64,000 nucleotides of DNA from an uncultured virus (IMG/VR IMGVR_UViG_3300048796_000130) (lineage: Duplodnaviria; Heunggongvirae; Uroviricota; Caudoviricetes). Below are positions 16,157 through 56,011 of the stretch, piece after piece. Position numbers and translations under genes: made by a program. Numbering within the stretch: position 1 is the stretch's first letter; the number at the start of each line of letters is the position of its first letter. Where the stretch lies: the IMG/VR virus record IMGVR_UViG_3300048796_000130, one strand, 5' to 3'. The notes beneath the pieces were generated by a model. That model made no database searches, was not told where the DNA came from, and worked only from the letters and a program-made list of their open reading frames with translations.

Positions 16157-16927
16157 CTACTTGGCGGTTCGTGAAATATCCCTGCGGGCATCGGCGTACC
16201 AGCCCGGCCCGGCGGAGGAGTTGAAAATGATCTTGCCGCGCACGGCGGAAATGGCCTCGTTGTAGCACTCGCCGGCGTCAGGCTGAAAACTCGATTCGTC
16301 GTTGAGGTAGCCCCAGGGGTGATAAGAGCGCACCTGGTCGGCGCCGCCGGGAATGCCCACGACGTAGCCGCCTCGGGCGAAGCTGAGAGAGTGTTCCGGC
16401 TGCTGATCGATTGGCTTGGTGAGCGGATAAGCGTCCTGCAACCATTGCTCCTGCGTCCGGTAGAGGCACTTCGCGTACTCGACCAACTGGATGACTTTGG
16501 CGTCTTTCTGGGTCTGGAAGAGCACGCCGCGGTGGGGCACGCGCATCGCATTCAGCGTCAGATAGGCCACACAGGCCCAGGAGATCATCAGGTCGCGGGA
16601 TTTCTCGATCCAGGTAATCTGCTCGGCATCGAAAATCTGGAACAAGTCTTTGAAATAGTCGTAGGGTGGAAAATACTCGTAAGGGTCCGGGCGCTTTTCC
16701 TCGACCCAGTGCTCGTTGTAGGTTTTGGCGTGCTGGGTCACCCAGATAAAGGGGTCGCGCGTGGCCTCTTCCGCTCTGGCATCGCGGTCGGCGACTTTCA
16801 CGCTCAAATCCTCGGGAGGCTTGTAGCGCGAATGTTCCGCGAGCTTCAGGCGCACCTGCGCATGGGCTTTCCAGAGATCGAGTTGGACGCGCCAGTCCAC
16901 GAGCTGCGGGATGGAGCTAACTTTCAT
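16157..16927 (-). CDS. terL: Terminase large subunit, ATPase part
   Basis: Deviant Walker A EKSRDLMISW, Walker B YLNDES, coupling motif NSS; ATG 16927 overlaps the terS end. Confidence 0.85.
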   Translation of the reverse strand: MKVSSIPQLVDWRVQLDLWKAHAQVRLKLAEHSRYKPPEDLSVKVADRDARAEEATRDPFIWVTQHAKTYNEHWVEEKRPDPYEYFPPYDYFKDLFQIFDAEQITWIEKSRDLMISWACVAYLTLNAMRVPHRGVLFQTQKDAKVIQLVEYAKCLYRTQEQWLQDAYPLTKPIDQQPEHSLSFARGGYVVGIPGGADQVRSYHPWGYLNDESSFQPDAGECYNEAISAVRGKIIFNSSAGPGWYADARRDISRTAK

Positions 16928-17450
16928 CGGCATCAGTACCAGCAGACTCATCCGGAGGAGCGGCATAACGAGCAGGCCACTTACCAGAGCGGTGAAATTC
17001 TTCGAGTTCCTCAATCGTCCAGCCGGCGAAGGGGTCATGGTCGGAGTACTTGCTTGACAGCCCAAAGATGTCTACCAGTTCGCGGAGCGCGCTGACCTTG
17101 GTGGAATCGTTCTCGGCATGTTGCGAGAGATCGTCGAGCCGGTTGATGATGTCGTTGCGGGTGACGGTGACGCCGCGTGCTTCTCTCTCGCCGACTTTCT
17201 TTACGAACGCGGCTTGCTTCGCCTCAATCGCCGCCCGCACCTGCGGACGGTTGAAGATGACGGAGGCGACTTTCTCCGGTTGCTTGAATCCCGCGAGCCT
17301 CGCCGCTTCGATCTGGTTCCCCCCGAAACACGCAACGAACTTGAGTTCTTGCTTCGAGAGCGGTTTCTTGGCGGGGTCTTTTACGCGACGGGCTTTTGGC
17401 TTTTTAACGTGCTTAGTCTTGCCCTTCTTTGCTGGTGCTTTGCGGGGCAT
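16917..17450 (-). CDS. terS: Terminase small subunit
   Basis: LSKQELKFV...GNQIEAARLAGF...RPQVRAAI HTH pattern; K..AL..L oligomerisation helix; AAGGAG RBS; directly upstream of terL. Confidence 0.85.
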   Translation of the reverse strand: MPRKAPAKKGKTKHVKKPKARRVKDPAKKPLSKQELKFVACFGGNQIEAARLAGFKQPEKVASVIFNRPQVRAAIEAKQAAFVKKVGEREARGVTVTRNDIINRLDDLSQHAENDSTKVSALRELVDIFGLSSKYSDHDPFAGWTIEELEEFHRSGKWPARYAAPPDESAGTDADES

Positions 17451-17549: not shown

Positions 17550-17807
17550 GTGCGAAGGAAGATTGAATACGTTGCGGTCTTCATCCTCTTCTGCCTATGG
17601 TTCGACTGGAGAATTCTCCGAAACTTAGGGGTCGCCACTTTCGCGATTTTGTACTTTCCCGTTGATCTAGTCCTGCATCCAACGTGGAATTACTTGACCG
17701 CGGCCTTCGCCATGAATCTTGCGCTGGCTGCCTTATGGTTTCTGGTCGTCGCTTGCGCCCAACTCTTCGCTTGGGCGAAGCGAAAACTACTGCGCAGCTC
17801 CCACTAA
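17550..17807 (+). CDS. Small multi-TM membrane protein; antisense moron
   Basis: About three hydrophobic segments; TGcTAGGAT (17534-42), 7 nt, GTG 17550. Confidence 0.65.
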   Translation: MRRKIEYVAVFILFCLWFDWRILRNLGVATFAILYFPVDLVLHPTWNYLTAAFAMNLALAALWFLVVACAQLFAWAKRKLLRSSH

Positions 17808-20800
17808 CGATTGCGACTGCCACGAATGCGTTCGTGCTCTTTTCTGCCGCAGAATCTTTTCCAGCAGATCGATCTCTTTCTGGTTTTTGTCCGCTTTCGC
17901 CGCGTCGAGGACGCGCTGCACTTCCGCGACAGAAAACCCGTGGACCGTATCTTCGAGCGGTTGAAGCCGCGCCCGATGTTCGATGTCGAGAATCTGGCGG
18001 TGAGTGAGTTGATGTTTCTCGCGGGCGTCTTCGAAGGGCTTCGCGTTGCCCTTGCGAAGCTGGTCGAGAATCTCCCGGCGTTGAACGCGGTTCTCGTGAT
18101 CTTCCGGCAATTCGGCTTCTGTGCCAACCTTCGAGGCCGCGATGTCTGCGGCGGTCTTCTCCGCGCGGGTCTTGGCGAAGGTTACCCCTCCCTGACTCCA
18201 CCAGAACTTACGTTTCTGCTCACTGGTTTCGGCTTGTTCGAATTGCCCGATCTGTCCGATCTGGCTCTCCAGATATTTGCGGAGTTGCCGTCCCTCCGTC
18301 CACCAGTCCGCGTGGGGATCGTAAATCTGATGGCCGGAGAAAAATTCGCGGTTGGTGGCGAGCTCCGCGGCGCTCTTCAAAACCGGGGCGGGAGTCGCCA
18401 CGCGGGTCAAGGCTTGACTGGCGGACTGTTTGTGTTCCGCGACATCGATGGCCGCCTGCATCAGGCCGAACGGCCCTACACGCCAGAAGGTTGCGTGTTC
18501 ATCTTTGGTCAGCTTCTTGGTCAGTTCATCGAGACCATACTTCATCACCAAAAGGCCAAGCCCGAGCATGGCGATGCGATCCCAGCCTTTGGCAATCTCT
18601 TGGGCCTTAGTGCGTCCCGGCGCTGGCTCTTGCGCGCCCAGGGCCGACTTGGCGGTTTCCGCGAAGGCTTTCAGTAGTCCGTAGCGGTAACCTCCGAAGA
18701 TGGTCGCCCACTTCTCGCCCATGACCTTCGCAATCAGGGTGCTGTCGAAGATTCGCGTCGGAACGCGGTACTCGGGGATGATACGACCCACCTCCTTGAG
18801 CGCGTCCTTCAATTCGACGTCGGGATGCTTCGCCTGATACTCGTAAGCGGCTTGCAGCATCATGATGTCGCTGCTAGTCCAGGCAATCTTCGAGGATGGT
18901 TCGTGAATCAGGTTTAAAAGGTTGCCATGCTCGATACCCAGTGCCTCCGCCAACTTCACCGCCCACGGCTCTTTCTTCTCCAGTCCTTCTGCGACCTGGT
19001 GCAGGAATAAGTCGCCGATTTCTTTGACCGCATCGCGGTGAGATTGCAGCGCGCCGCCCGCGTCCAGCGCATCCAGCAAATCCTGATTCTGCCCGAGAAC
19101 GGCCTTGGTCGCCCGGTTTGAGGTGCGCCACAGCACTCCCCAATTGTGCGGCAGGAAGCCGGTCACGCCTTTTTCAAAAGCCCACGACGCGGCCACGTTG
19201 AGCGGATGCCGGATGGGATTCAGGAGCATCGAGATGCGCAGGAATTTCCCCACTTCGTCCATCACGTTCGGCCCTTTCGACTGCATCCGGGCATCGTATT
19301 TATTCAGGACTTCAGCGGTGCGCGGAGCGAAATAGTAGTCCTTAAACTGCGCCATCGTGGTCGGTTTCCAGCCCTCGGGCGGATTGCCCGAACCTTTCGA
19401 CGCGATCTCGTGGAACTCCGGCGAGGATTTGAATGCCTCCAGAAAGTGCAGGTTGTCGAGGGCGTCGCCGAGTTGAATGCTGGAGGCCAGCGCCGACGCG
19501 ATGGCCGAGTGGTAGTAACTGACGTTGCTGTGAAACTCGATTTCTTTTTTGGTCGCCTGCTTGACGGTCCAGATTTGCCCGTCATTATCCTCGAATACGC
19601 GCCCTTCTTCGGTGTGTGAAATTCCGCCGATGTTCTCCGGCTCCCCGTTTTTCCAGGCCGTGACTTGGCCGTTTTTGATGGAGACGACCTTGCGCTCCCC
19701 CGAAGGGCTTTCCAGCGCCATCATGACGCGATGTTTCAGTTGCGGAGCGCCCTTCGAGAGCATGCCGCCGGTCCCGCTGGACTTCACGCCTTGCGCCATG
19801 CGGTCTACCAGTCCGCGCTTGCCTTTGACCATGCGGTGAGAGTAGTTCTCGATGGTGACCCCACCCTGATTGAGTTCCCCGAACATCTCGTCGTTGTGCT
19901 CAAGGATGGGCAACACTACATCGTCGAGAACCTTATCCTGCACCGGAGTCAGCGGTTCGTTCTCGGGATCGTCCAGGTGGGCATCGACAGCCACGTCATC
20001 TGTACGGGGGATGTTGAGTTTCCGCATGGTCTGGACGGCGGCCAGGCGACGGGACTGCTTTCGGGTGGCAAGGGTTTCGAAGCCTCGTTCGAGATCGCGG
20101 GCGAGGCCGGTGGCGCGTTTTACGTCGCGCAAATATTCTCCAACCGTGCCGGCGGCTTCCGCTACGTTCTTTGCTAACTCTCCGGGGCGGAGTTCGCCGG
20201 ACTCGCCGGCAAGCAGTGATTCGGGCTCACTTTTTTCTCCAGGCTCTTTTGGGCCAAAGCCTTTCGCCTCTTCCGCCATGCTGGGCGAAGCGTAGAGCGC
20301 GGACTTCTTCATCAACTGCTCGATGACCTTCGTCTCTTTGCCTTTGGGGATCGCCGCTCTCATCGTGTTCTGCTGGGAGACAAAATCGCCCGTCAAATCA
20401 GTGATGCCGTGATCAAGGAAGTATTTGCCGCCACGGGCTTTGGCTTTCGGAGTGACCACTTCCAGTTTGCCAGCGTTATTCACTACGCGGACGTTCCCAT
20501 CGCGGCTGGCGATGCCCATGTCCTCGATGCGGGGATTGACGCTCTTGCGCAGGAATTTCAGCGCATGCGCGGCATCTCGCAAACGATAGTCGCCTCGGGT
20601 GTTCTTGCTGAAGTCGAATTTCTTCGGCAAGAGAATTCCTTGCTCGGTCGTTCCGTCGGCTTTACTGAAGTTGATGATCGTGCCACGCGTGTCCTTCAGT
20701 TCGCCGTAGGCCGCCAGTAAATTGCCGGTGATGATCTTGGCGGTTTCGCGGGTCTCCGCTTTTCTGCCCCGGAAAATGTCTTCCGGCTTATCGTAAAGTT

Positions 20801-23800
20801 TTGCGACTTCGATGCGTTCCAGTTGCGTGGCGGGCACCGCGAGCGTGCGCAGTGAGCCGTTGGTCGCGAGCGTGACGTTGATCTTGCTCATGGCGAACGG
20901 GTTGCCGCTGCTTTTGTGGGTGCTGCGGATGTTCGCCACGGCTGCGCTGTACACGTCGCCGTTAATTTCCACGCGCAGGGTTGAGCCGATCTGATGGTCG
21001 CGAATAAAGGCTCGCGCGGTTCGCGCGACCGTCTCCGCTTGCCCCACCATCGGACTCTCCGGATCGAGCGATTGCTTGTAGTAAGTTAATTCGCCTTCCA
21101 GTTTGTCGATCAACTCGTTCGCGTGGGCCGCTGGCGTCTTTCCGTCGAGGTGAGTTTTGATGGCTTCCGTCGCTTCGTCCGGAGTGAGTGGCTTGCCTTG
21201 CGATTTAATCGAGTACTCGCCGTAGATGGCGCTGTCTCCAAACGGCGTGTTCGGGTTGGTCGCTTCGACCAACGTGTCGCTGCGGGTTTCCCTAGCGTCG
21301 TAGTCGAAGGTCTTCGGCTCTAACTCGTTCTGATTGGTGGAGTCGAGATACGCGATGTAGTCGTTGTACTGCTGCTCGACGTCGCGGTAGAACTCTTCCT
21401 GCACTTTGACCGGCAGGATCGCGAGCCGCCCCGTCGCCTTGCGCGCGATATCCGGCGTGGGGCTGCCGTCGTCGTTGACCGGGGAGACGTGCAGCATCGC
21501 CGTGAGCTGCGGATTGTCCGCCAAATAATTCCCGACGATCTGGTCGCCATACTGGTTCAGCATGTCCGCCGCTTTTACGGAGGTCGCCGATTCGGTGTTG
21601 CTGGAAGTGTTGGCGTTCAGAGACTTCATTTTCTTCGAAAGCAGGGCGCTGGGCCGCTTCTCGGCTGGAAGATCGGCGTTCAGGATGGTGTAGCCAGGAA
21701 GCTTCACCTGGCCGGTGCGGTGAATGCGGCCCAGCATCTGCATGAAGATATTGATGTCCTGCGCGGCTTGGGCCACGATCATGTGGCGCGGCTTCTGGTC
21801 GGCGAATTTCTCCGAGGCGTGCAGGCTGATGCCGGTCGATCCTGCAACGTTGATAATCAAGGAGTCGAGCCGCCCATCGTTAAAGCGGCGCGTGGTCTCT
21901 ACTTTGTCGTTCTGTTCCTGGGTGGGAACGCGGGAGACGGTGGGCGCTTCCGGAGTTGAGTAATCAACCGAGAGATCGCGCCCTGTGATTTCCGCAACGC
22001 TGTATCCTTCCGCCTCGATGCGCTGGCGAATCCAGTCAATCGGCGAGACCGGCAGATCGATCTTTAATTTGTCGATGGTCTTTTGCGCGTCTTTATAAGC
22101 CCGCAAGGTTTCCGGGTCCAGTTCGCTGAGGGGAACAAACCTCTTCGACACATCGCCCTGGGCGTTTTTAATTTGCAGATAGCGGCTGCGCTCCAAAGCT
22201 CGCGACAGGACCGTTCGATAGTCGAAGTTCTCCAGCGCGTCTCCGTCCCGCAGGTTGTTATCCCCCACGTAAGTCGAGAGGAAAGACCCCATGGTGTTAT
22301 CCACGGCGATGATTGGCTTCTCGCCGCGCCGAATGGAGGCAATCGCATCGTCGGCGGCGGTGTTGGCCTTGATGCCGAGAAGCATCTGGCGAACGAAGTT
22401 GTGGACTACGGAAGAGAACTCGGTGTGGTGGACGGCTTTCCCCGCTTGGTTGCCGCCGCCCGTAATCTGGTTCGCTTTGTTTTCCTTTTGCGCTTGCTTC
22501 TGCGCCTCCGCCACATAGGTGGTGTGGAAGGCTTTGTCCGCATCCACGATGGCGCGCAAGGCTTCGGTCGCGCCATTGGCAATCTTGGTGTGCTCCGCGC
22601 GGTGATCGGTGTCGACCTTGGTCGCCATCTTCACGCCGTCGTAAGAACGTTCCCGGCGGAACATCTGCCCGGCCTTCACCAGATTATTCGAGACCACGGT
22701 TTGCAGCGGGAGGCCGCCGTCTTTCATGGCTTGCACCAGTGTGCCGCTGTCGCCGATGGCTTCGCCCATGTCCGTCTTGAAATACAGCGGCATGTTATCC
22801 GGACGCTTGGCGTAGGTTGCGGAGAGATAAGTCACGCCTTTTGCGTTCTGCAATACGCTGCGCAGGAAATCTCCGGTGTTTGAGTCGCCTCCGGCATTGT
22901 GGGACTCGTCGAGAACGAACACCGCCTTCGAGGAGAGGGAAGCGAGCATCTGCTGCTGGGTGTTGGGGACGTTGATCTGAGAGTAGGTGAGAAAGACCGC
23001 GTTGCGGCCCTCGGGCAGCGTGCCGGTGTTGCGGATGTTCTCGATAGCCTTGCGATGCAGCCCCGGTTTGTTCACGAAGGCGCGGCTTCCGTCGGGGCGC
23101 GTGATCCACTCGTCTGAGTTCACGATGAAGGGGTTCACGTCGCTGGTTCCGATGTCGGCGAGGTCGCCGTACATATCGGTAAACAGCGATGGGGTCTTGG
23201 TGATGAAAACCGGAATGTCGCCACGCTTCGCCGCCCAGCGGATGATGGCTGCAGCCTGACGGCCTTTGCCGATGCCGGTTTGATCGGCGATCACGACCGC
23301 TTTCCCCTGCTGCATCTCGTGGATCGCGGCGGCTACGGAATCGACCTGCAATCCCATGAAGGCATCATGCAGATCGTTGACGGATTTGTATCCCAGTTCT
23401 TTCGCGGCGAACTTATCGAGGTCTCCGACCTCATCTTCCAGGACGCTCATCGCCTGTTCGAGCGGAGACTTCATGTTGACGGGAATGAGCACGCCAACAT
23501 CTTTTTTGCCGGAAGCAGGAGCGTAGGAAGTTTGAAAATCGTTTGACTGGGGACTTATTGCGGGAGGGCTTCGGTGATCTGTTCCAGTGTCGGGAGTTCG
23601 CTCGGGCTCAGATTCAGGCTTGTGCCCTTGCTCCAATCGATCTGATCGAGCAACGTCCGCATCTGGTCGCAGGCTAGTATCTGCGGGGGCCAGTCCTCCG
23701 GATCGTTCTGCAACGCGATCTGATACAGGTCGGGCAGGAGTTCCGGGCTGCTGGTGAGGACCGACTTCGCTTGTTCCGGGTTTTTCCCGATCAGCTTTTT

Positions 23801-26800
23801 CAACTGCTGGCGCTGCAGGAGTTCGTAGAGTTCCCGGCTCATCGGTTGCGGGGCGCTGTAGGGAACTGTCAGCCCCTCGCTCCCGTGCCGGTCGGGAAGA
23901 TTGGGACGCCAGGATTTGATCGAATCGGTCATAGACATCTTTCCATGAGCCTACTCGTTCGATGCTCGCAACCGGCGGCGCGATTCCAGAAGAAGCTTCG
24001 CGTCCGTCGATGGCGATAACTCGAACCGGCCATGCGGCACCTTGACGCCCGTACAGCTTGCCGTCCAGCTCAAAGTGCCCAGCGACATTATAGTGCGAAT
24101 ACAGCCAGTTGAAGAAGATTTTATCGTCCGCGCTTTGGCCGCCTGCGGTGAACTTCGAGGCTCCCAGGATGAGGGTCGCTTTACCCTTGTCCTTCATGGC
24201 CTCCAGCGCGCGAGCCGCAATCAGGTGGTCGATCTGGCCGATTTTGTAGCCGTCCACACGCTCTTTCGTTGCGTTGCCCTGCGCGTCTTTGACGGAGCCA
24301 AATGGCGGGTTGGTGACTACGGCATCGTAACTCTTGCCGAGCGTCGCCTCCATGGCCTTATCCCACTTCTCCGCAGCATCGTAGCTCGTGGTCTCGCTAA
24401 ACCCCTGCTTCCTGAGGGCTGCGGTGCGGTCGGGATTCAGTTCGTTCACTCGGACGTTCTTGGGATTCGCCGCGATGGTGAGCATCCCGTTGCCAGCGGT
24501 AGGCTCGTACAGAGTGGTCAGTTCATTCACGCCAGCCAATTTGTCTGCGAGGTAGGCCAGCGGTGCGGGAGTTGAGTACGCCTGGTTCTCGATGCTGGTC
24601 GACGTCCGAACATTGAGGTTTGGTTGCGAGTCGTAGAGCTTTACCAGTTCGTCGAACGTTTGGCGTGTGCTCGCGCCGACGGCGACAATCTCTCGCGCGT
24701 GCTGCACGATGGCAACTTCGAGCGCTTCTTGTGCCTGCTTCATCCGGGCTGGGTCGGCAGGTTTGCCGTCGAAGGCGTCTACGATCTTCTTGAGCCCCGG
24801 ATTATCTTTGGGCATTTCTCCGTCGGTGATCTTGTCGGCGAGGTGTGAGGTGAGGTCGGCGGCTTCAGGGGCGTGCGGGACAGCGACGATTCCGCCCTCT
24901 TTGGTGGGAATGATGTCGTGCTTCTGCCAGGAGAATTTCGGCTTCGCGGGCGCGGCTTCCGCCTTCTTGCCTTCCAGCTTCACCACTTCCTGCGATCCGT
25001 CTTTCTTTGAGATCGCAATTTCCGAGACAGTGAACTTCTTTCCCTCGGTGACGTTCATTCCTACGTAGCGGTCGGCTTTGGCGGGATCGACGTAAGCAAC
25101 CGTGGCGTGCGGCTTGTATGCCTTGAAGGAGGGTTCGGCGAAGTCGCCGTGCTTTTCTAATTCTGCGTTCAGGCGATGCAACTCCGGGGCTTCAATCGGC
25201 GCGATGATGGGCGCAGAGCCTTCGGAGTGTTCGCTGACGGGAAATTTCTCGGTCTTGCCAAGAGAGGCTTCAAAGGGAGACTGTGCGGAAAGAAATGATT
25301 TAATTTTTTCCGTGTCCTCGCCTTTGATGCCGTAGCGGACGGTGACGTGATTGCCACCGTCCCCAATTTCTTTTCCTTTGCCGGCGAGATCCGCGTTGGA
25401 GATTCTGGTGCGTGCGGATTCTAAGGCTTTCGCGGCATCGGACGAGGCGGGGATGTTGGCTTGAGTGGAACCGAACTTGTACTTCGGCTTCTCTTCTAGT
25501 GCTCCAGACTGAACTCCGGAAACAGCGCCTCCGGTTCTTCCTTCATCGCGCGGACCAGTTCCTTGTCCGAGATGGTCAATTGGTCCACCCGCACCCCCAA
25601 CCGAATCGCCAGATCGCGGCGGAGTCGCGGCAGGTGCGCTTCCAGTGTCAGATCGGTCATTTGCTGATAGGTGAGTTTTGCCATGGCCGGATTCTACCCC
25701 CTTCGTCGGTTCGGTCGTCCCGCCTTTTTCTCTTCCTGTGCGGGTGATAAATCCCCCCGGCTTCGGCCTCTCTCCTAACTCCATTTCCAGATTGCGCGAG
25801 TGGGTGATGACCACAGGGCGCTCTCCGGCCGCAACCTTCGCTTCCACATCTTTCAGGGCTGCATCTTGCCGGGTGCGCGCTTCGTTCCAGCTCTCGCCGT
25901 CTTTCGGCTTCTTGTCCGGGTTCTGCTCGTAGCTATTCCAAATGGGCTTCGCTTCGCCGACTTTCAAGCCTTCGGTTTCGGGAACGTGCTGGGGACGGAG
26001 GCGGGAATCTTCTTGGACGGGGATGCCGAGTTTCTTGCCGACAATGTCTGCGGTTTGCTTGGCGCGCGCTAAATCGCTGGTGACGATGACGGTCGGCTTC
26101 TGCGCCTTGATGTCGTCGGCGAGTTTGTTGGCGGCTTTTACTCCGCGATCGTCTAGCGGCTCTTGCGTCCAGCCCGCGACGGTTTCGTTCGCCCCGGCCT
26201 GGTCGAGTTTGGTTTCGCCGTGGCGGGCGAAGATGATCTGGCCTTTGGAGGAGTCTTGCTTGGCTTTGGTCTCGATCTCACGCACCCGATCCATCGCCGC
26301 ACGCATGCGGTCGTTGTGCCCGGAGTTGCGTTCAGCCATCGCCTGCGCTTCTTCCGGCGTATCGGCATGGCCCTTCTGAAGCAGTACGTCGGGGTCGCCT
26401 TCCAGTAATCCAGCGCGGCCTTCGAGACTCTGCCGGACCTCAGAGGGGTTGTCTCCTCTGGCGATCAGCGCCCGCGCGATCTCCTCATAGGTTTTGGGAT
26501 CGTTGATCTGTTCGGCGGAGCGCGGGTACATCCATCGCCGAAAGTCTTTGTCGGAAAGTTTGGCGGCGTCTTCCGGCCCAAGCGATTGGATCGCGGCATC
26601 GCGCGTCTTCTGGCGCTCTCCGATGGCCTTCTCGTCCGGAGTTAACTCTTCGCCTGCTTGCAGTTTTCGGAGCGCTTCTCGGGCCGCTGGCGTACTGGAT
26701 TCGTCGGCGGGGATGCGCTGCTGCGCGGTTCGTTCGACGGGGGCTTCACTCCCACCAGCCGGACGTGAGGTAGGACTGCTTCCTGAAACGCCATGCCCGC

Positions 26801-28256
26801 TTGAAACAGGGCTTGCATTGCCGACTTCTTGAGGTGCCGCCGCCGCTTCGCGTTCATCTCCCGATTCTACCTTCTGCACCTTCCCCCACTGCTCCGCAGG
26901 TACGCTGGCCATACCTCCACCGTCGAGCTTCACTCGAATTAACCGTGAGTTGATGTGCGCCACTGTGCCGGTATCGCCTTTCGGCAAGGTGACGCGGTCG
27001 CCTTTCTGGAAGGCGGGGGCTTCGGATTTCTTCTCTCCCGGAGTTTCTTCAATCGTAAATCCCGGCGGCGGGGCAGGGACGGGTTCCTTGGCGGATTGCT
27101 TCGCCTGCGCGTCCCTCCGTCCAATTTCTTCGTTCACAAATTTCTGCGCGAGCTTGTCTGCCTGCCCTTTGTTCGCAACCTGGTGAAGCTGCCCATCCGG
27201 CCCCATAAACTTCCCTTGGTTGAGCATTTCGGTCGAGAGCGCGGTGTGTGCGGCCAAGGTGGCTTGCGGACGCTCTTCGTGGGGCAGGGAAGCTATCTTG
27301 TCGCCGATCTCTTGAATCTCTTCTGCAGAGATCGAGTGCATCGGGGGAACCTGGCCGGGAAGGGCGAGAGGTGGCTCCCCGGGTTGGCGCGGTGGAGCTG
27401 GCGGCGGGGTGGGCGAGAATCTTCCCGATTGTTTCAGGACTCCCCAGGCGTCATTCAAGTTCCTCGCATCTTCGATATGAGACGCATTTACGTCGGGGTG
27501 GAGATTCGACATCGCGGCCCGGTACGCCGCGTTGGCTTGCTCAAGGGTGGGTTCTTCCGGAAGAGTTTGGCCGGCCCGGTAAACCAGGTTGCGGAACAAG
27601 GCCTCGGCACGCGGAATTCCTTCGGGCGGGAGGCCTTCGTAGGGACTGCTCATCGCGGCATGAGCGACCATCGGAGCTATCTGAGCCAAGCTGGTAGCTT
27701 CTTGTTGCACCTCTGGGCTCGCGCCTAAAGCTTTCGTACCGAGTTCGGTCGCTTTGCCGGCGGCGGCCCCTTCAGCCAGTCCACGCACCATTGGACTCTT
27801 CGCTGCAGCGAGCACAGCTTTGCCGACGGTGGGCGCGGCCTCGATGCCCGCGCCCGCTTCGAGTGCCGCAGGACCCACGAGCGGCGTTGCGCCCTCTGCC
27901 GCCACGTTCGCCAATTGCAGAGCGCCCAATGTTCGCTTGCCCGGAGTGGTTACGTTCTCCAGCCCCGTTGTGGTTTTGACGGCGGGAGTTTCGGCGACGG
28001 GCGTCCCGCTTTCATAGCCAAGATCGCCCGTGACCGCTCCCGCAACTGTTCCGGCGGCGCGTTTCCAGAGTGAAGGAGTAGGCGGGGGTGCGGCGGGCAG
28101 GCTTCCGCTCCAACTGGGCCGTCGCTGGTTCAGAGTGACCGGCCCAGACGACTGATCCGCATCGAGCGCGAAGCCTTTGGGTGGCGGAGGGATTTCCCCT
28201 TCGTCGTCGAGCGTAAACCCCTTAGGCGGCGCAGGGATTGTGCTGGTGAGACCCAC
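17787..28256 (-). CDS. 3489-aa polyvalent DarB-like internal virion protein (J-domain, His-phosphatase, 2H phosphoesterase, N6-MTase, SNO-type SF2 helicase)
   Basis: LHPD; ARHGET..TSDLARAKQTA..ITHS; HVT/HAT; YSTP..EPTAGNG..NPPF; DQTGIGKGRQ, DESH, SAT, QMLGRIHRTGQ; located after the ejection genes. Confidence 0.9.
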   Translation of the reverse strand: MGLTSTIPAPPKGFTLDDEGEIPPPPKGFALDADQSSGPVTLNQRRPSWSGSLPAAPPPTPSLWKRAAGTVAGAVTGDLGYESGTPVAETPAVKTTTGLENVTTPGKRTLGALQLANVAAEGATPLVGPAALEAGAGIEAAPTVGKAVLAAAKSPMVRGLAEGAAAGKATELGTKALGASPEVQQEATSLAQIAPMVAHAAMSSPYEGLPPEGIPRAEALFRNLVYRAGQTLPEEPTLEQANAAYRAAMSNLHPDVNASHIEDARNLNDAWGVLKQSGRFSPTPPPAPPRQPGEPPLALPGQVPPMHSISAEEIQEIGDKIASLPHEERPQATLAAHTALSTEMLNQGKFMGPDGQLHQVANKGQADKLAQKFVNEEIGRRDAQAKQSAKEPVPAPPPGFTIEETPGEKKSEAPAFQKGDRVTLPKGDTGTVAHINSRLIRVKLDGGGMASVPAEQWGKVQKVESGDEREAAAAPQEVGNASPVSSGHGVSGSSPTSRPAGGSEAPVERTAQQRIPADESSTPAAREALRKLQAGEELTPDEKAIGERQKTRDAAIQSLGPEDAAKLSDKDFRRWMYPRSAEQINDPKTYEEIARALIARGDNPSEVRQSLEGRAGLLEGDPDVLLQKGHADTPEEAQAMAERNSGHNDRMRAAMDRVREIETKAKQDSSKGQIIFARHGETKLDQAGANETVAGWTQEPLDDRGVKAANKLADDIKAQKPTVIVTSDLARAKQTADIVGKKLGIPVQEDSRLRPQHVPETEGLKVGEAKPIWNSYEQNPDKKPKDGESWNEARTRQDAALKDVEAKVAAGERPVVITHSRNLEMELGERPKPGGFITRTGREKGGTTEPTKGVESGHGKTHLSANDRSDTGSAPAATPPRSGDSVGGAGGPIDHLGQGTGPRDEGRTGGAVSGVQSGALEEKPKYKFGSTQANIPASSDAAKALESARTRISNADLAGKGKEIGDGGNHVTVRYGIKGEDTEKIKSFLSAQSPFEASLGKTEKFPVSEHSEGSAPIIAPIEAPELHRLNAELEKHGDFAEPSFKAYKPHATVAYVDPAKADRYVGMNVTEGKKFTVSEIAISKKDGSQEVVKLEGKKAEAAPAKPKFSWQKHDIIPTKEGGIVAVPHAPEAADLTSHLADKITDGEMPKDNPGLKKIVDAFDGKPADPARMKQAQEALEVAIVQHAREIVAVGASTRQTFDELVKLYDSQPNLNVRTSTSIENQAYSTPAPLAYLADKLAGVNELTTLYEPTAGNGMLTIAANPKNVRVNELNPDRTAALRKQGFSETTSYDAAEKWDKAMEATLGKSYDAVVTNPPFGSVKDAQGNATKERVDGYKIGQIDHLIAARALEAMKDKGKATLILGASKFTAGGQSADDKIFFNWLYSHYNVAGHFELDGKLYGRQGAAWPVRVIAIDGREASSGIAPPVASIERVGSWKDVYDRFDQILASQSSRPARERGADSSLQRPATDEPGTLRTPAAPAVEKADREKPGTSEVGPHQQPGTPARPVSDRVAERSGGLAPADTSLRPDADVARSDRLEQGHKPESEPERTPDTGTDHRSPPAISPQSNDFQTSYAPASGKKDVGVLIPVNMKSPLEQAMSVLEDEVGDLDKFAAKELGYKSVNDLHDAFMGLQVDSVAAAIHEMQQGKAVVIADQTGIGKGRQAAAIIRWAAKRGDIPVFITKTPSLFTDMYGDLADIGTSDVNPFIVNSDEWITRPDGSRAFVNKPGLHRKAIENIRNTGTLPEGRNAVFLTYSQINVPNTQQQMLASLSSKAVFVLDESHNAGGDSNTGDFLRSVLQNAKGVTYLSATYAKRPDNMPLYFKTDMGEAIGDSGTLVQAMKDGGLPLQTVVSNNLVKAGQMFRRERSYDGVKMATKVDTDHRAEHTKIANGATEALRAIVDADKAFHTTYVAEAQKQAQKENKANQITGGGNQAGKAVHHTEFSSVVHNFVRQMLLGIKANTAADDAIASIRRGEKPIIAVDNTMGSFLSTYVGDNNLRDGDALENFDYRTVLSRALERSRYLQIKNAQGDVSKRFVPLSELDPETLRAYKDAQKTIDKLKIDLPVSPIDWIRQRIEAEGYSVAEITGRDLSVDYSTPEAPTVSRVPTQEQNDKVETTRRFNDGRLDSLIINVAGSTGISLHASEKFADQKPRHMIVAQAAQDINIFMQMLGRIHRTGQVKLPGYTILNADLPAEKRPSALLSKKMKSLNANTSSNTESATSVKAADMLNQYGDQIVGNYLADNPQLTAMLHVSPVNDDGSPTPDIARKATGRLAILPVKVQEEFYRDVEQQYNDYIAYLDSTNQNELEPKTFDYDARETRSDTLVEATNPNTPFGDSAIYGEYSIKSQGKPLTPDEATEAIKTHLDGKTPAAHANELIDKLEGELTYYKQSLDPESPMVGQAETVARTARAFIRDHQIGSTLRVEINGDVYSAAVANIRSTHKSSGNPFAMSKINVTLATNGSLRTLAVPATQLERIEVAKLYDKPEDIFRGRKAETRETAKIITGNLLAAYGELKDTRGTIINFSKADGTTEQGILLPKKFDFSKNTRGDYRLRDAAHALKFLRKSVNPRIEDMGIASRDGNVRVVNNAGKLEVVTPKAKARGGKYFLDHGITDLTGDFVSQQNTMRAAIPKGKETKVIEQLMKKSALYASPSMAEEAKGFGPKEPGEKSEPESLLAGESGELRPGELAKNVAEAAGTVGEYLRDVKRATGLARDLERGFETLATRKQSRRLAAVQTMRKLNIPRTDDVAVDAHLDDPENEPLTPVQDKVLDDVVLPILEHNDEMFGELNQGGVTIENYSHRMVKGKRGLVDRMAQGVKSSGTGGMLSKGAPQLKHRVMMALESPSGERKVVSIKNGQVTAWKNGEPENIGGISHTEEGRVFEDNDGQIWTVKQATKKEIEFHSNVSYYHSAIASALASSIQLGDALDNLHFLEAFKSSPEFHEIASKGSGNPPEGWKPTTMAQFKDYYFAPRTAEVLNKYDARMQSKGPNVMDEVGKFLRISMLLNPIRHPLNVAASWAFEKGVTGFLPHNWGVLWRTSNRATKAVLGQNQDLLDALDAGGALQSHRDAVKEIGDLFLHQVAEGLEKKEPWAVKLAEALGIEHGNLLNLIHEPSSKIAWTSSDIMMLQAAYEYQAKHPDVELKDALKEVGRIIPEYRVPTRIFDSTLIAKVMGEKWATIFGGYRYGLLKAFAETAKSALGAQEPAPGRTKAQEIAKGWDRIAMLGLGLLVMKYGLDELTKKLTKDEHATFWRVGPFGLMQAAIDVAEHKQSASQALTRVATPAPVLKSAAELATNREFFSGHQIYDPHADWWTEGRQLRKYLESQIGQIGQFEQAETSEQKRKFWWSQGGVTFAKTRAEKTAADIAASKVGTEAELPEDHENRVQRREILDQLRKGNAKPFEDAREKHQLTHRQILDIEHRARLQPLEDTVHGFSVAEVQRVLDAAKADKNQKEIDLLEKILRQKRARTHSWQSQSLVGAAQ
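23555..23938 (-). CDS. Putative overprinted gene (+1 frame) in the MTase-helicase linker
   Basis: Helical, protein-like sequence (RELYELLQRQQLKKLIG...) where the host frame is R/P/D-rich and disordered; exact start uncertain. Confidence 0.5.
   Translation of the reverse strand: MSMTDSIKSWRPNLPDRHGSEGLTVPYSAPQPMSRELYELLQRQQLKKLIGKNPEQAKSVLTSSPELLPDLYQIALQNDPEDWPPQILACDQMRTLLDQIDWSKGTSLNLSPSELPTLEQITEALPQ
25496..25684 (-). CDS. Putative overprinted gene (+1 frame) in the phosphatase-2H linker
   Basis: TAGAAT (25696-25691), 6 nt, ATG; protein-like 62 aa. Confidence 0.6.
   Translation of the reverse strand: MAKLTYQQMTDLTLEAHLPRLRRDLAIRLGVRVDQLTISDKELVRAMKEEPEALFPEFSLEH
26642..26857 (-). CDS. 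Putative overprinted gene (+1 frame) in an N-terminal linker
   Basis: TAGAAT (26869-26864), 6 nt, ATG; basic helical N-terminal half. Confidence 0.45.
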   Translation of the reverse strand: MNAKRRRHLKKSAMQALFQAGMAFQEAVLPHVRLVGVKPPSNEPRSSASPPTNPVRQRPEKRSENCKQAKS

Positions 28257-47192: not shown

Positions 47193-48296
47193 TTAGTGTT
47201 TCAGAGCGGCGACTTGATCCTTGAGTAGTTCGATTTCGGCCTGCTGCTGGTGAATCGCGTTCACCAAAGCCGCGACGATGGGGCGGTCGCCATTCGAGAG
47301 CGCGAGATATTCCTTCTCGTGGGGATGGTTGCAGGGAACTTTGTCGTAAATGGTTTTCGATTCGGGATCGGGGTTGGTGCTGAAGCATTCCTTGGTGACC
47401 GCTTCCGGCAGAACTGTTTGCAGATTGCGGGCGTTGAATCCGATCTGCTCCGGATTCGGCTCGCCGTCGTGAATGCTGTTGACCCTCTGGCCTTCCTCGT
47501 TCCAGTGGAAGTGGATGGGCTCGATAGCCATGATGGTGTCGAGGCCGCCGCGGTAGCGACTGAAAACTTTAAGCAGCGGATCGGACGAGGCGGTACAGAC
47601 GGTGATAAGTCCCTGTGTGTAGGTTTGGGTCGCGGTGCACAGCGTCGTGCCGGAGATTCCAGCGGTTCCGCTGGCGCTGAAATTAGTGTTCGCGCGCACC
47701 GTCGCTGACGCCGTGAGATTAGCCAACTGCATGGTGCCAGTAGTCGTTCCCTGCGAAGCGCTTCCGCAATCAATGACCAGAGCCGAGGCGCGAGAGCATC
47801 CCGTGTCGCCATTCCAGGAGAGCGGGCTGCCGCTGGTCATGCTGAGAGTGGTGAATGCGCCTGCGGCGGGAGTAGTTCCGCCGATGGCTGCCGGAGAAGC
47901 GAGATAGGTGGCGAGAGAATTAAAAGATGGGCTGCCAGTCGAACCTGAAACATTGCCGAGAAATGTTCCCGTCGCAACGTTGGGCGCTAAACTTGCGGTC
48001 ACGGTTCCTGATGTCGTAACGGCGGAGCTTGGCGTCGAACTGAGAACCGTACCATCTCCCGTGAACGTGACGCTGGTGACGGTGCCACTGCCACCACTCG
48101 CCGTCATCGTCACCGTCGATCCCGACGCCGTACAGGTCATCCCGGTGGAGCAGTTGAGCTTCGCGTAGCCCAGCCACGTCCCAATGGTCGTGCCTGCATT
48201 CTGGACCTGCAGGATGAATTGTTGCGGGCTGGCGGCCATGAGGATCACAGCCGCACAACAGAGCAGGGTAAGGGTGGCGAGTAATTTGCGTTTCAT
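47193..48296 (-). CDS. Tail-fibre-like protein with signal peptide and C-terminal peptidase S74 intramolecular chaperone
   Basis: MKRKLLATLTLLCCAAVILMA; GSGTVTSV, IGGTTPAAG fibre motifs; SSDPLLK, IGFNARNLQTVLPEAV, LVNAIHQQQAEI. Confidence 0.85.
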   Translation of the reverse strand: MKRKLLATLTLLCCAAVILMAASPQQFILQVQNAGTTIGTWLGYAKLNCSTGMTCTASGSTVTMTASGGSGTVTSVTFTGDGTVLSSTPSSAVTTSGTVTASLAPNVATGTFLGNVSGSTGSPSFNSLATYLASPAAIGGTTPAAGAFTTLSMTSGSPLSWNGDTGCSRASALVIDCGSASQGTTTGTMQLANLTASATVRANTNFSASGTAGISGTTLCTATQTYTQGLITVCTASSDPLLKVFSRYRGGLDTIMAIEPIHFHWNEEGQRVNSIHDGEPNPEQIGFNARNLQTVLPEAVTKECFSTNPDPESKTIYDKVPCNHPHEKEYLALSNGDRPIVAALVNAIHQQQAEIELLKDQVAALKH

Positions 48297-55822: not shown

Positions 55823-56011
55823 ATGAACATCGATGAGCGCCTTCACCGATTAACCGAGCGACACGAAGCCCTCACGCAAACCGTGGAGATGCTTACACAG
55901 GACATTCGCGAACTCAAGGAAGCGGCTGCGAGTTTACTGCGGGTTGCGGAGATTCACGAAACGCGGATTTCCCGTCTCGAAGGACAGGACGGGGACGAAT
56001 TAACGCAGTAA
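55823..56011 (+). CDS. Small coiled-coil protein
   Basis: MNIDERLHRLTERHEALTQTVE...HETRISRLEG; leaderless start. Confidence 0.75.
   Translation: MNIDERLHRLTERHEALTQTVEMLTQDIRELKEAAASLLRVAEIHETRISRLEGQDGDELTQ

Follow-up and report, generated by a model that had tools for sequence, protein, structure and literature searches.

Rz1 of phage lambda lies in the +1 frame of Rz. The two lambda spanin genes, one embedded in the other, give two products that form one complex (PMC5295617, PMC6139136). In polyvalent proteins, a methylase with a C-terminal SF2 helicase of the SWI2/SNF2/strawberry-notch type forms a dyad, the archetype of which is DarB of phage P1 (PMC5512222). Viral overprinting is described as the reading of one DNA stretch in two frames, where one of the products is disordered-looking and of odd composition (PMC8227390, PMC3494269). 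The present analysis concerns ORF3, an open reading frame (ORF) nested in the +1 frame of a giant polyvalent protein gene in 64,000 nucleotides of DNA from an uncultured virus of the Caudoviricetes (IMG/VR record IMGVR_UViG_3300048796_000130); this whole stretch is called the window, and the frame of the giant gene is called the host frame. The comparisons strongly supported ORF3 as a real and widely conserved nested gene, predicted to code for a folded 125-residue protein, the frame of which appears to be under purifying selection.

Like Rz1 within Rz, ORF3 has a start and a stop of its own and is a small but complete gene that is fully enclosed, on one strand, by a longer gene of a tailed phage. 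In each case both products are retained; the lambda products complex together, whereas an interaction of the ORF3 product with the giant protein is only proposed. Unlike Rz/Rz1, the outer gene codes for a polyvalent protein of 3489 amino acids, the nested gene fills an inter-domain tether and not a structured region, and the outer frame over ORF3 shows almost no amino-acid constraint. Unlike Rz1, the ORF3 product is soluble-looking, carries no lipoprotein signal as judged by eye, and is unrelated in sequence. The window shares with the DarB-type dyad of Iyer et al. 2017 a methylase-SF2 helicase fusion inside a multi-domain phage protein, and the main text of that paper (PMC5512222) contains no wording on linkers, overlapping genes, frameshifts or disorder and mentions no second gene at the junction. 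A search of the full-text literature returned no account of any gene nested within a polyvalent protein. Because gene finders do not call nested genes on the same strand, the ORF3 family has been seen only on short contigs and has never been linked to its host gene.

The features of the dyad region were located as follows:

17787-28256, minus strand, giant polyvalent protein gene, a stop-free ORF of 3489 amino acids

24126-24497, minus strand, methylase domain of the giant protein (Pfam Eco57I/MTS match, amino acids 1254-1377)

23555-23932, minus strand, ORF3, nested +1-frame gene of 125 amino acids, stop included (evidence: intact homologues, omega, family and fold)

23555-23933, minus strand, host-frame methylase-helicase linker (about amino acids 1442-1567), poorly conserved and stop-free

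21522-23309, minus strand, Sno/SNF2-type helicase of the giant protein (Pfam, amino acids 1650-2245)

Pfam matches gave the domain order of the giant protein as an N-terminal region, His_Phos_1 (amino acids 674-823), 2H phosphoesterase, Eco57I-type methylase, Sno/SNF2-type helicase (AAA_34, ResIII and Helicase_C_4, amino acids 1641-2245) and a long C-terminal part. The conserved methylase domain extended past the Pfam match to about amino acid 1447, and ORF3 lay at the junction of the methylase and the helicase. A methylase fused at its C-terminus to an SF2 helicase within a multi-domain protein was thus found, as in DarB, and the giant ORF, judged from its domain content, codes for a polyvalent protein of a phage with a DarB-like methylase-helicase dyad at its core. 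No model for LPD36 matched N-terminal to the methylase at E<=0.1 in the Pfam scan, and no dedicated search for it was made. The possibility that the giant ORF represents several separate genes was rejected, as it runs for 3489 codons without a stop and the host frame is stop-free across the ORF3 stretch in five loci.

The conserved start of ORF3 was the ATG at 23932-23930; an extra in-frame ATG of the window two codons upstream (23938-23936) was absent in the relatives. ORF3 was intact, with the same start and stop, in all four independent diverged relatives with full coverage (L001, L003, L008 and L010), at 69%, 59%, 54% and 47% identity to the window, respectively, and in each of them it was nested in the methylase-helicase junction of the giant ORF. 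L007 was nearly identical to L003, and the two were counted as one locus. The relative L001, with 62% protein identity to the window, carried an intact ORF of 124 amino acids at the place of ORF3. A prior reading of the window made from its letters and ORF translations (the sequence-only reading) had named frequent +1-frame stops in close homologues among the results that would speak against nested genes, and this was not the case for ORF3. The L003 sequence was also present as L006 on a metagenome contig of 313,385 bases, besides the 48-kilobase IMG/VR record, and its carrier may be a prophage.

Three loci (L005, L009 and L011) were set aside. L005 and L009 were considered as natural frameshift variants and rejected, since both are short contigs of the same phage as the window and their frames are broken at several places. 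At L005:987-1360, one base missing near an A5 run (GGGAAAAAC) fuses the host frame to the ORF3 frame, which looks like an assembly or sequencing error and not biology. L011:1-200 begins within an ORF3 homologue (last 40 residues, 58% identical) and continues into a broken host frame with the helicase missing; it may be a degraded or rearranged copy.

Differences between homologues were concentrated at the third codon positions of ORF3; the window and L001, for instance, differed at 23, 24 and 47 sites at ORF3 codon positions 1, 2 and 3, respectively. Omega (the ratio dN/dS) was estimated by Nei-Gojobori, a simple count that is not overlap-aware and in which the omegas of overlapping frames are interdependent, and in all ten pairs it was 0.27-0.56 in the ORF3 frame, while the host frame gave 0.82-1.70 and the third frame 0.78-1.44. 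The alignment of homologues with dN/dS by frame, which the sequence-only reading had proposed as a check, therefore found the +1 frame conserved for ORF3. Amino-acid identity in the host frame (0.30-0.56) was no better than in the non-coding third frame (0.33-0.55). The ORF3 frame showed the codon usage of the genome, while the host frame over the same stretch did not.

These results bear on the proposal that ORF3 is a fossil, that is, an untranslated former domain or gene that is conserved only because the host linker, or the DNA or RNA itself, is constrained. The third-position excess tracks the frame of ORF3 and not that of the host, which argues against a fossil. Conservation in both frames is seen in some places, such as a near-identical block of 40 nucleotides between the window and L001, as a fossil would allow; however, the start, the stop, the open frame and the low omega are kept where the proportion of synonymous differences (pS) reaches 0.38-0.66, codon compatibility with family members is kept across giants of about 50% identity, and none of the host-frame residues over the stretch is invariant. 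A fossil was rated as very improbable.

The host frame was also kept. Among 21 giant homologues (alignment A8), no host residue was invariant between Y1442 and Q1575. With ORF3 fixed and the codon usage of the genome as the null, the host frame was open across ORF3 in all five loci (P=0.011-0.032 each). Because an open host frame in 5/5 loci stands against a chance of 1.1-3.2% in each, both frames appear to be maintained and the giant protein appears really to be read through ORF3. Selection would thus act on the sequence of ORF3 and, in the host frame, mainly on openness, and an open host frame would keep the methylase and the helicase in one polypeptide through a poorly conserved tether. The methylase-helicase "linker" of about 130 residues would then be dual-coding DNA.

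Two features upstream of ORF3 were relevant to its start:

23939-23944, minus strand, purine-rich GGAAAG, possible weak Shine-Dalgarno stretch 6 nucleotides upstream of the ORF3 ATG

23956-23958, minus strand, TAG, +1-frame stop bounding ORF3 upstream, 8 codons before the conserved ATG

In all five loci, the ATG of ORF3 was formed by host Tyr-Glu/Asp codons (TAT-GAx), with TAT making up 28% of Tyr codons. A GGRAAG-like stretch lay 4-9 nucleotides upstream of it, again in 5/5 loci, and was weaker than the GGAG/AGGA-type sites found 6-10 nucleotides upstream of other genes of the window. A leaderless start, which the sequence-only reading had suggested for the nested ORFs of the giant gene, did not hold for ORF3. 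No TAnnnT lay at leaderless distance from its conserved ATG (a TAGGCT lies 15 nucleotides upstream), and the remark of that reading that this ORF lacks such a box was correct. An RNA-library contig (23886-24061) spanned the ORF3 start; such contigs show no 5' ends, strand or level and may contain DNA. As the contig crosses the start, the term leaderless does not apply to ORF3. Independent translation by internal initiation is most likely, as judged from these sequence features: ORF3 would be translated on its own from the mRNA of the giant gene, with initiation at the ATG within TAT-GAx behind the purine-rich Shine-Dalgarno-like stretch. A change of TAT to TAC at the host Tyr would remove the nested ATG and be silent in the giant protein.

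A different route to the ORF3 product would be a programmed +1 frameshift, or slippage in transcription, close to where the methylase ends; besides the full-length protein, this would give a truncated giant protein that ends in the ORF3 domain. In line with this, every fusion protein of the family carries the ORF3 domain at its C-terminus or close to it, and the A5 run (GGGAAAAAC) lies inside ORF3 in the window; at this run the two frames are joined in L005, a metagenome contig of low quality. L001, however, has GAGGACGAC at that place, so that the run is not conserved, and no conserved slippery site was found. A +1-frame stop lay 6-8 codons before the ORF3 ATG in four of the five loci (L010 was without one), which would confine any shift to a few codons in which no slippery motif is conserved. 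In addition, the ATG is conserved against codon preference and nearly all small family members begin at that Met. Frameshifting or slippage was considered improbable.

Searches with the ORF3 protein recovered a large family. A profile searched against 1.84 billion representative proteins matched 204 clusters with E<=1e-3, among them 140 with E<=1e-10, and 44 proteins were found in a 90%-clustered database. Most members had 115-130 amino acids and shared a common first Met and a common C-terminal end. In the ESM Atlas, the nearest clusters were viral hypothetical proteins of 116 amino acids (score 0.92). With 40 sequences, AlphaFold2 returned a predicted local distance difference test (pLDDT) value of 89.5 and a predicted template modelling (pTM) score of 0.81 for a helical core packed against two strands, while with 5 sequences the pLDDT was only 65. 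The ORF3 product is therefore predicted to be a globular alpha/beta protein of a large uncharacterised family in viruses and metagenomes. The model had no match at E<=1e-3 in the PDB by Foldseek or in BFVD, and the top Z was 3.1 against 48,161 chains by VIA-align. No relative was found in two scans of GTDB species-representative contigs with ORF3 alignments, in viral contig scans with P0029, P0025 and P0199 (alignment A5 returned the known contig only), or by tblastn of ORF3 against 50,697 phage records.

The ORF3 domain was also found in ordinary non-nested proteins, always at or near the C-terminus. The partners N-terminal to it were Sel1/TPR repeats (P0069), apparently hydrophobic stretches (judged by eye) or a giant-protein domain. 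The last arrangement was seen in P0048, P0050 and P0185 (322-376 amino acids), in which the ORF3-type domain is C-terminal and an N-terminal domain of about 60 residues matches an in-frame domain of giant proteins (at most 61% identity to P0290); as this domain is shared with the giants, the ORF3 domain seems to be part of the polyvalent-protein toolkit. At the position of the ORF3 Met1, two of the three fusion proteins read there (P0048 and P0069) had no Met, while P0050 had one. The Met is thus not needed for the fold, which argues that the nested genes keep it because it is their start codon.

As a rule, the older frame of an overlap keeps the codon usage of its genome. In usual overprinting the nested ORF is young and disordered, whereas ORF3 has genome-typical codons, a confidently predicted fold and free-standing relatives, and it is the outer frame over ORF3 that looks like the newcomer. 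The non-nested relatives, the genome-typical codon usage and the confident fold together suggest that the small gene existed first and was later embedded in the dyad, with the host linker as the younger reading. If this is true, the locus is a clear natural case of an overlap whose evolutionary newcomer appears to be the outer and not the nested frame.

The extent of the arrangement among giant homologues was assessed at the protein level. A search with the giant junction region gave 1528 proteins at E<=1e-10 among 1659 candidates scored, and the best 120 of the 1528 were used for the junction analysis. The methylase-helicase junction had 145-180 amino acids in all 120 giants (median 160), with low conservation. 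For each giant, any codon assignment was allowed under which the +1 frame of the junction would code for the C-terminal 60 residues of a known member of the family, with reversed sequences as controls. The real median was 21 mismatches, against a median of 32 and a minimum of 27 in the reversed controls, and the ORF3-family fit in the +1 frame was better than every reversed control in 100 of the 120 giants. Four giant/small pairs were compatible over their full length with 0 mismatches (P0201/P0002, which is L001; P0216/P0108; P0253/P0140; and P0311/P0159), and the window's own giant/ORF3 pair had 1 mismatch over the full length. In the codon-compatible pairs, Met1 of the small protein always fell on a host Tyr. 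These pairs suggest that distant family members are also nested in giants with only about 50% identity to the window.

Seven loci with more distant dyads (about 31-34% identity in the dyad) were then compared. A protein-like +1 ORF of 119-147 amino acids, unannotated in the records, was present at the same junction in three of them:

L013:1877-2233, +1 ORF of Bacteroides phage BS-TP4, chance-open P=0.045

L014:1841-2281, +1 ORF of Chroococcidiopsis sp. CCNUC1 plasmid pB, chance-open P=0.029

L015:1841-2224, +1 ORF of a Thalassospira lucentensis plasmid, chance-open P=0.56

Overall, ORF3 as an internally initiated nested gene in a dual-coding linker of the dyad was the best explanation of these data and is held to be highly probable. 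Several observations weigh against it. Constraint on second positions of ORF3 lowers the apparent synonymous rate (dS) of the host frame, so that a host omega of about 1 overstates the neutrality of the host frame. When the codon set of ORF3 itself was taken as the null, the host frame was open in 1.3-46% of cases (46% in L010); this null is conservative, as that codon set may itself be shaped by selection for an open host frame. The Shine-Dalgarno-like stretch is weak (GGAAAG, GGGAAG) and its bases also encode host residues. The close ORF3 family is present on five independent DNA loci only, and the wider claim is one of protein-level codon compatibility. Among the distant dyads, the similarity of the L014 ORF to the ORF3 family was borderline (hidden Markov model E about 1e-4, hhalign E 0.0028), the L013 and L015 ORFs had no detectable homology to it, and the other four of the seven (plasmids of Xanthomonas, Yersinia and Pseudomonas, and an Acinetobacter phage) had shorter junctions and no such ORF. 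Lastly, the fold searches with the ORF3 model (PDB, VIA-align chains and BFVD) gave no functional lead, and its function is reasoned from other observations.

The best guess for that function, and the weakest step of the argument, is that ORF3 codes for an accessory subunit that is co-produced with the dyad protein, such as a chaperone of assembly or packaging or a modulator of activity. The analogy with Rz/Rz1 and the tie of ORF3 to the dyad across wide divergence suggest such a role. The sequence-only reading had suggested that the nested products are partners, inhibitors or chaperones of the adjacent enzymatic domains, which stays a conjecture, and had proposed co-folding as a check. Co-folding of ORF3 (alignment of 40 rows) with residues 1150-1900 of the giant protein (21 rows) scored 0.00 in both runs, which were made without controls and count neither for nor against binding. 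A broader reading, possible and rather doubtful at present, is that the junction "linker" in a whole clade of giant phage and prophage proteins (more than a hundred giants were examined, and there may be more than a thousand) did not originate as a linker but as a small gene that was captured and is read through by the giant protein in another frame. Its product would come from the mRNA of the dyad protein and be a partner that the dyad cannot do without. Under this broader reading, the partner could act as a chaperone or packaging adaptor in loading the giant protein into the capsid, or as a brake on the methylase-helicase in the producing cell, and the unrelated-looking +1 ORFs of the Bacteroides phage and of the cyanobacterial and alphaproteobacterial plasmids would be further cases. 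If ORF3 is a nested gene as proposed, DarB-like giants of the anti-restriction type have an overlooked extra component that is needed in functional and structural studies, and a "disordered linker" can be the shadow of another gene, which changes how the linkers of giant phage proteins are read.

Two further +1-frame ORFs lay in other linkers of the same giant protein:

25496-25684, minus strand, ORF2 of 62 amino acids, candidate lineage-specific nested gene (evidence: codon usage and -10-like box)

25691-25696, minus strand, TAGAAT, -10-like, 6 nucleotides before the ORF2 ATG

24996-25358, minus strand, 2H phosphoesterase domain of the giant protein (Pfam, amino acids 967-1087)

26642-26857, minus strand, ORF1 of 71 amino acids in an N-terminal linker, with a marginal codon-usage signal

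26864-26869, minus strand, TAGAAT, -10-like, 6 nucleotides before the ORF1 ATG

ORF1 lies before His_Phos_1 and ORF2 in the linker between His_Phos_1 and the 2H phosphoesterase. Together with ORF3, listed from its upstream ATG as 23555-23938 (127 amino acids), all are on the minus strand and start at 1 mod 3 relative to the giant ORF start at 28256, that is, in the +1 frame. The sequence-only reading had described three +1-frame ORFs, each confined to an inter-domain linker, and the coordinates, the frame and the positions between Pfam domains all agreed with it. Its larger claim, that these are independently expressed genes overprinted on the linkers, stood for ORF3 (conserved, selected and predicted to fold) and found no comparative support for ORF1 and ORF2. 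Separate searches with the three peptides, which it had also proposed, likewise divided them, with 204 clusters for ORF3, two near-identical matches for ORF2, and none for ORF1 in the family libraries. No above-threshold match was obtained for any of the three ORFs in Pfam, PHROGs, NCBIfam or PADLOC; the Pfam model CSTF2_hinge (PF14327) reached 20.9 bits against a gathering cut-off of 27 (E=0.0005, residues 35-76 only).

TAGAAT-N6-ATG occurred exactly twice in the window, at the starts of ORF1 and ORF2, against 0.10 expected, and at least two copies were seen in 0 of 100 shuffles; plain TAGAAT was not enriched (7 found against 8.9 expected). Read in the host frame, the motif gives V-E-S-G-D/H, as had been claimed, and at both boxes the host Val uses the rare codon GTA (6.9% of Val codons), followed by GAA. 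The TAG of both boxes is also the +1-frame stop that bounds each ORF; since ORFs are listed from such a stop onwards, the listing itself accounts for part of the pattern. The absence of a good -35 was likewise borne out by the sequences upstream, in which neither a -35 nor an extended -10 was found at either box, and by a promoter scan of 23300-27100, which gave 0 sites. A TAnnnT was present 6-8 nucleotides before the start codon of ORF1 and of ORF2. The claim that six ordinary genes of the window share this layout was checked in part and held for two textbook cases, TTGACA-N17-TACATT-N8-ATG at 455 (minus) and TTGACA-N17-TACAGT-N6-ATG at 55823 (plus); these two TTGACA-bearing promoters indicate that this phage or its host does use leaderless starts. 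The ORF at 455 has 151 amino acids and runs off the start of the window, and that at 55823 has 62 amino acids.

ORF length was uninformative in this DNA of 60% G+C: when the codons were randomised synonymously under a constant host protein, the +1 frame was open in 39-54% of the trials. A scan of codon usage along the entire giant ORF gave just four stretches in which another frame outscores the host frame, with a strong signal for ORF3, a moderate one for ORF2 (over amino acids 840-920) and a marginal one for ORF1. The G+C content at codon positions 1/2/3 of the host frame was about 0.78/0.66/0.38 over ORF2 and about 0.82/0.64/0.30 over ORF3, against 0.63/0.45/0.70 overall; given the low third-position values, it is the +1 frame that holds the normal pattern of the genome, rich in G+C at third positions, over both. 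The sequence-only reading had thus picked the right places as unusual. The fourth stretch, also marginal and near the C-terminus (17966-18116, host amino acids 3380-3430), scored 0.04-0.08 per codon in the +1 frame against -0.03 to 0.02 in the host frame. It overlaps a TTG ORF of 107 amino acids at 17804-18127 and is probably noise.

For ORF2, only two database matches were found, both near-identical (97% and 96%). There was no tblastn match in 50,697 phage records and no usable match in the ESM Atlas (recognition score 2069, below the 2300 mark), and the best rows in the family libraries were below threshold (phrog_6076, E=0.21; PDC-M40C, E=0.0024). The sequence is balanced and helical-looking by eye. 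RNA-library contigs of two studies stop at 25645 and 25654, 30-40 nucleotides inside ORF2, whereas a DNA run continues across, and one small metatranscriptome covers only the ORF2 and ORF3 regions of the 3.5-kilobase stretch; uncovered bins in these libraries carry no weight, and the contig stops are a weak hint. The ORF1 and ORF2 linkers were lineage-specific, being unalignable with L001 and absent from the 8 closest giant homologues shown, and no tblastn match to ORF1 or ORF2 was found in related loci or elsewhere in the window. The C-terminal half of ORF1 is low-complexity by eye. ORF2 might, at a rather low probability, be a young lineage-specific nested gene with its own weak promoter, while ORF1 is probably a chance ORF and unlikely to be a real gene.

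These observations also bear on the model in which all three ORFs are independently transcribed, with ORF1 and ORF2 on leaderless mRNAs that start 6-7 nucleotides after the TAGAAT -10 box. The excess of TAGAAT-N6-ATG, the placing of both boxes on rare GTA followed by GAA, the same geometry in the promoters at 455 and 55823, the codon-usage scan that singles out these stretches and, as a weak hint, the RNA-library contigs that stop inside ORF2 are all in keeping with such transcription. They are set against the missing -35 and extended -10 and the lack of promoter-like sites in the scan, a TAG in each box that merely bounds the ORF, ORF1 and ORF2 lengths that are not significant (P=0.54 each), the lack of diverged homologues with linkers absent from the closest giants, and the marginal signal and low complexity of ORF1. 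Independent transcription of all three was judged unlikely; ORF3 alone stands as a nested gene, more widespread than the sequence-only reading had supposed, with internal initiation as its probable mode of expression.

The window appears to come from a tailed phage of a poorly characterised kind. PHROG matches were obtained for 5 of 23 large ORFs scanned (18 were without a match) and comprised a weak terminase large subunit (16157-17065), a tail fibre (47193-48296), one family of unknown function and two DNA methylases. The closest relatives of the window were found on IMG/VR contigs. No informative sequence variants were found in the ORFs across four sequencing runs, in which only positions 26175 and 26178 differed, both in one contig. 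The stretch 23450-26950 was almost letter-identical in peat and permafrost metagenomes of many studies, with 11 runs holding at least half of its words. The 2H domain (host amino acids 967-1087) weakly matched the anti-CBASS Acb1 family (E=0.066, below the cut-off), and by this similarity it may degrade cyclic-nucleotide signals.

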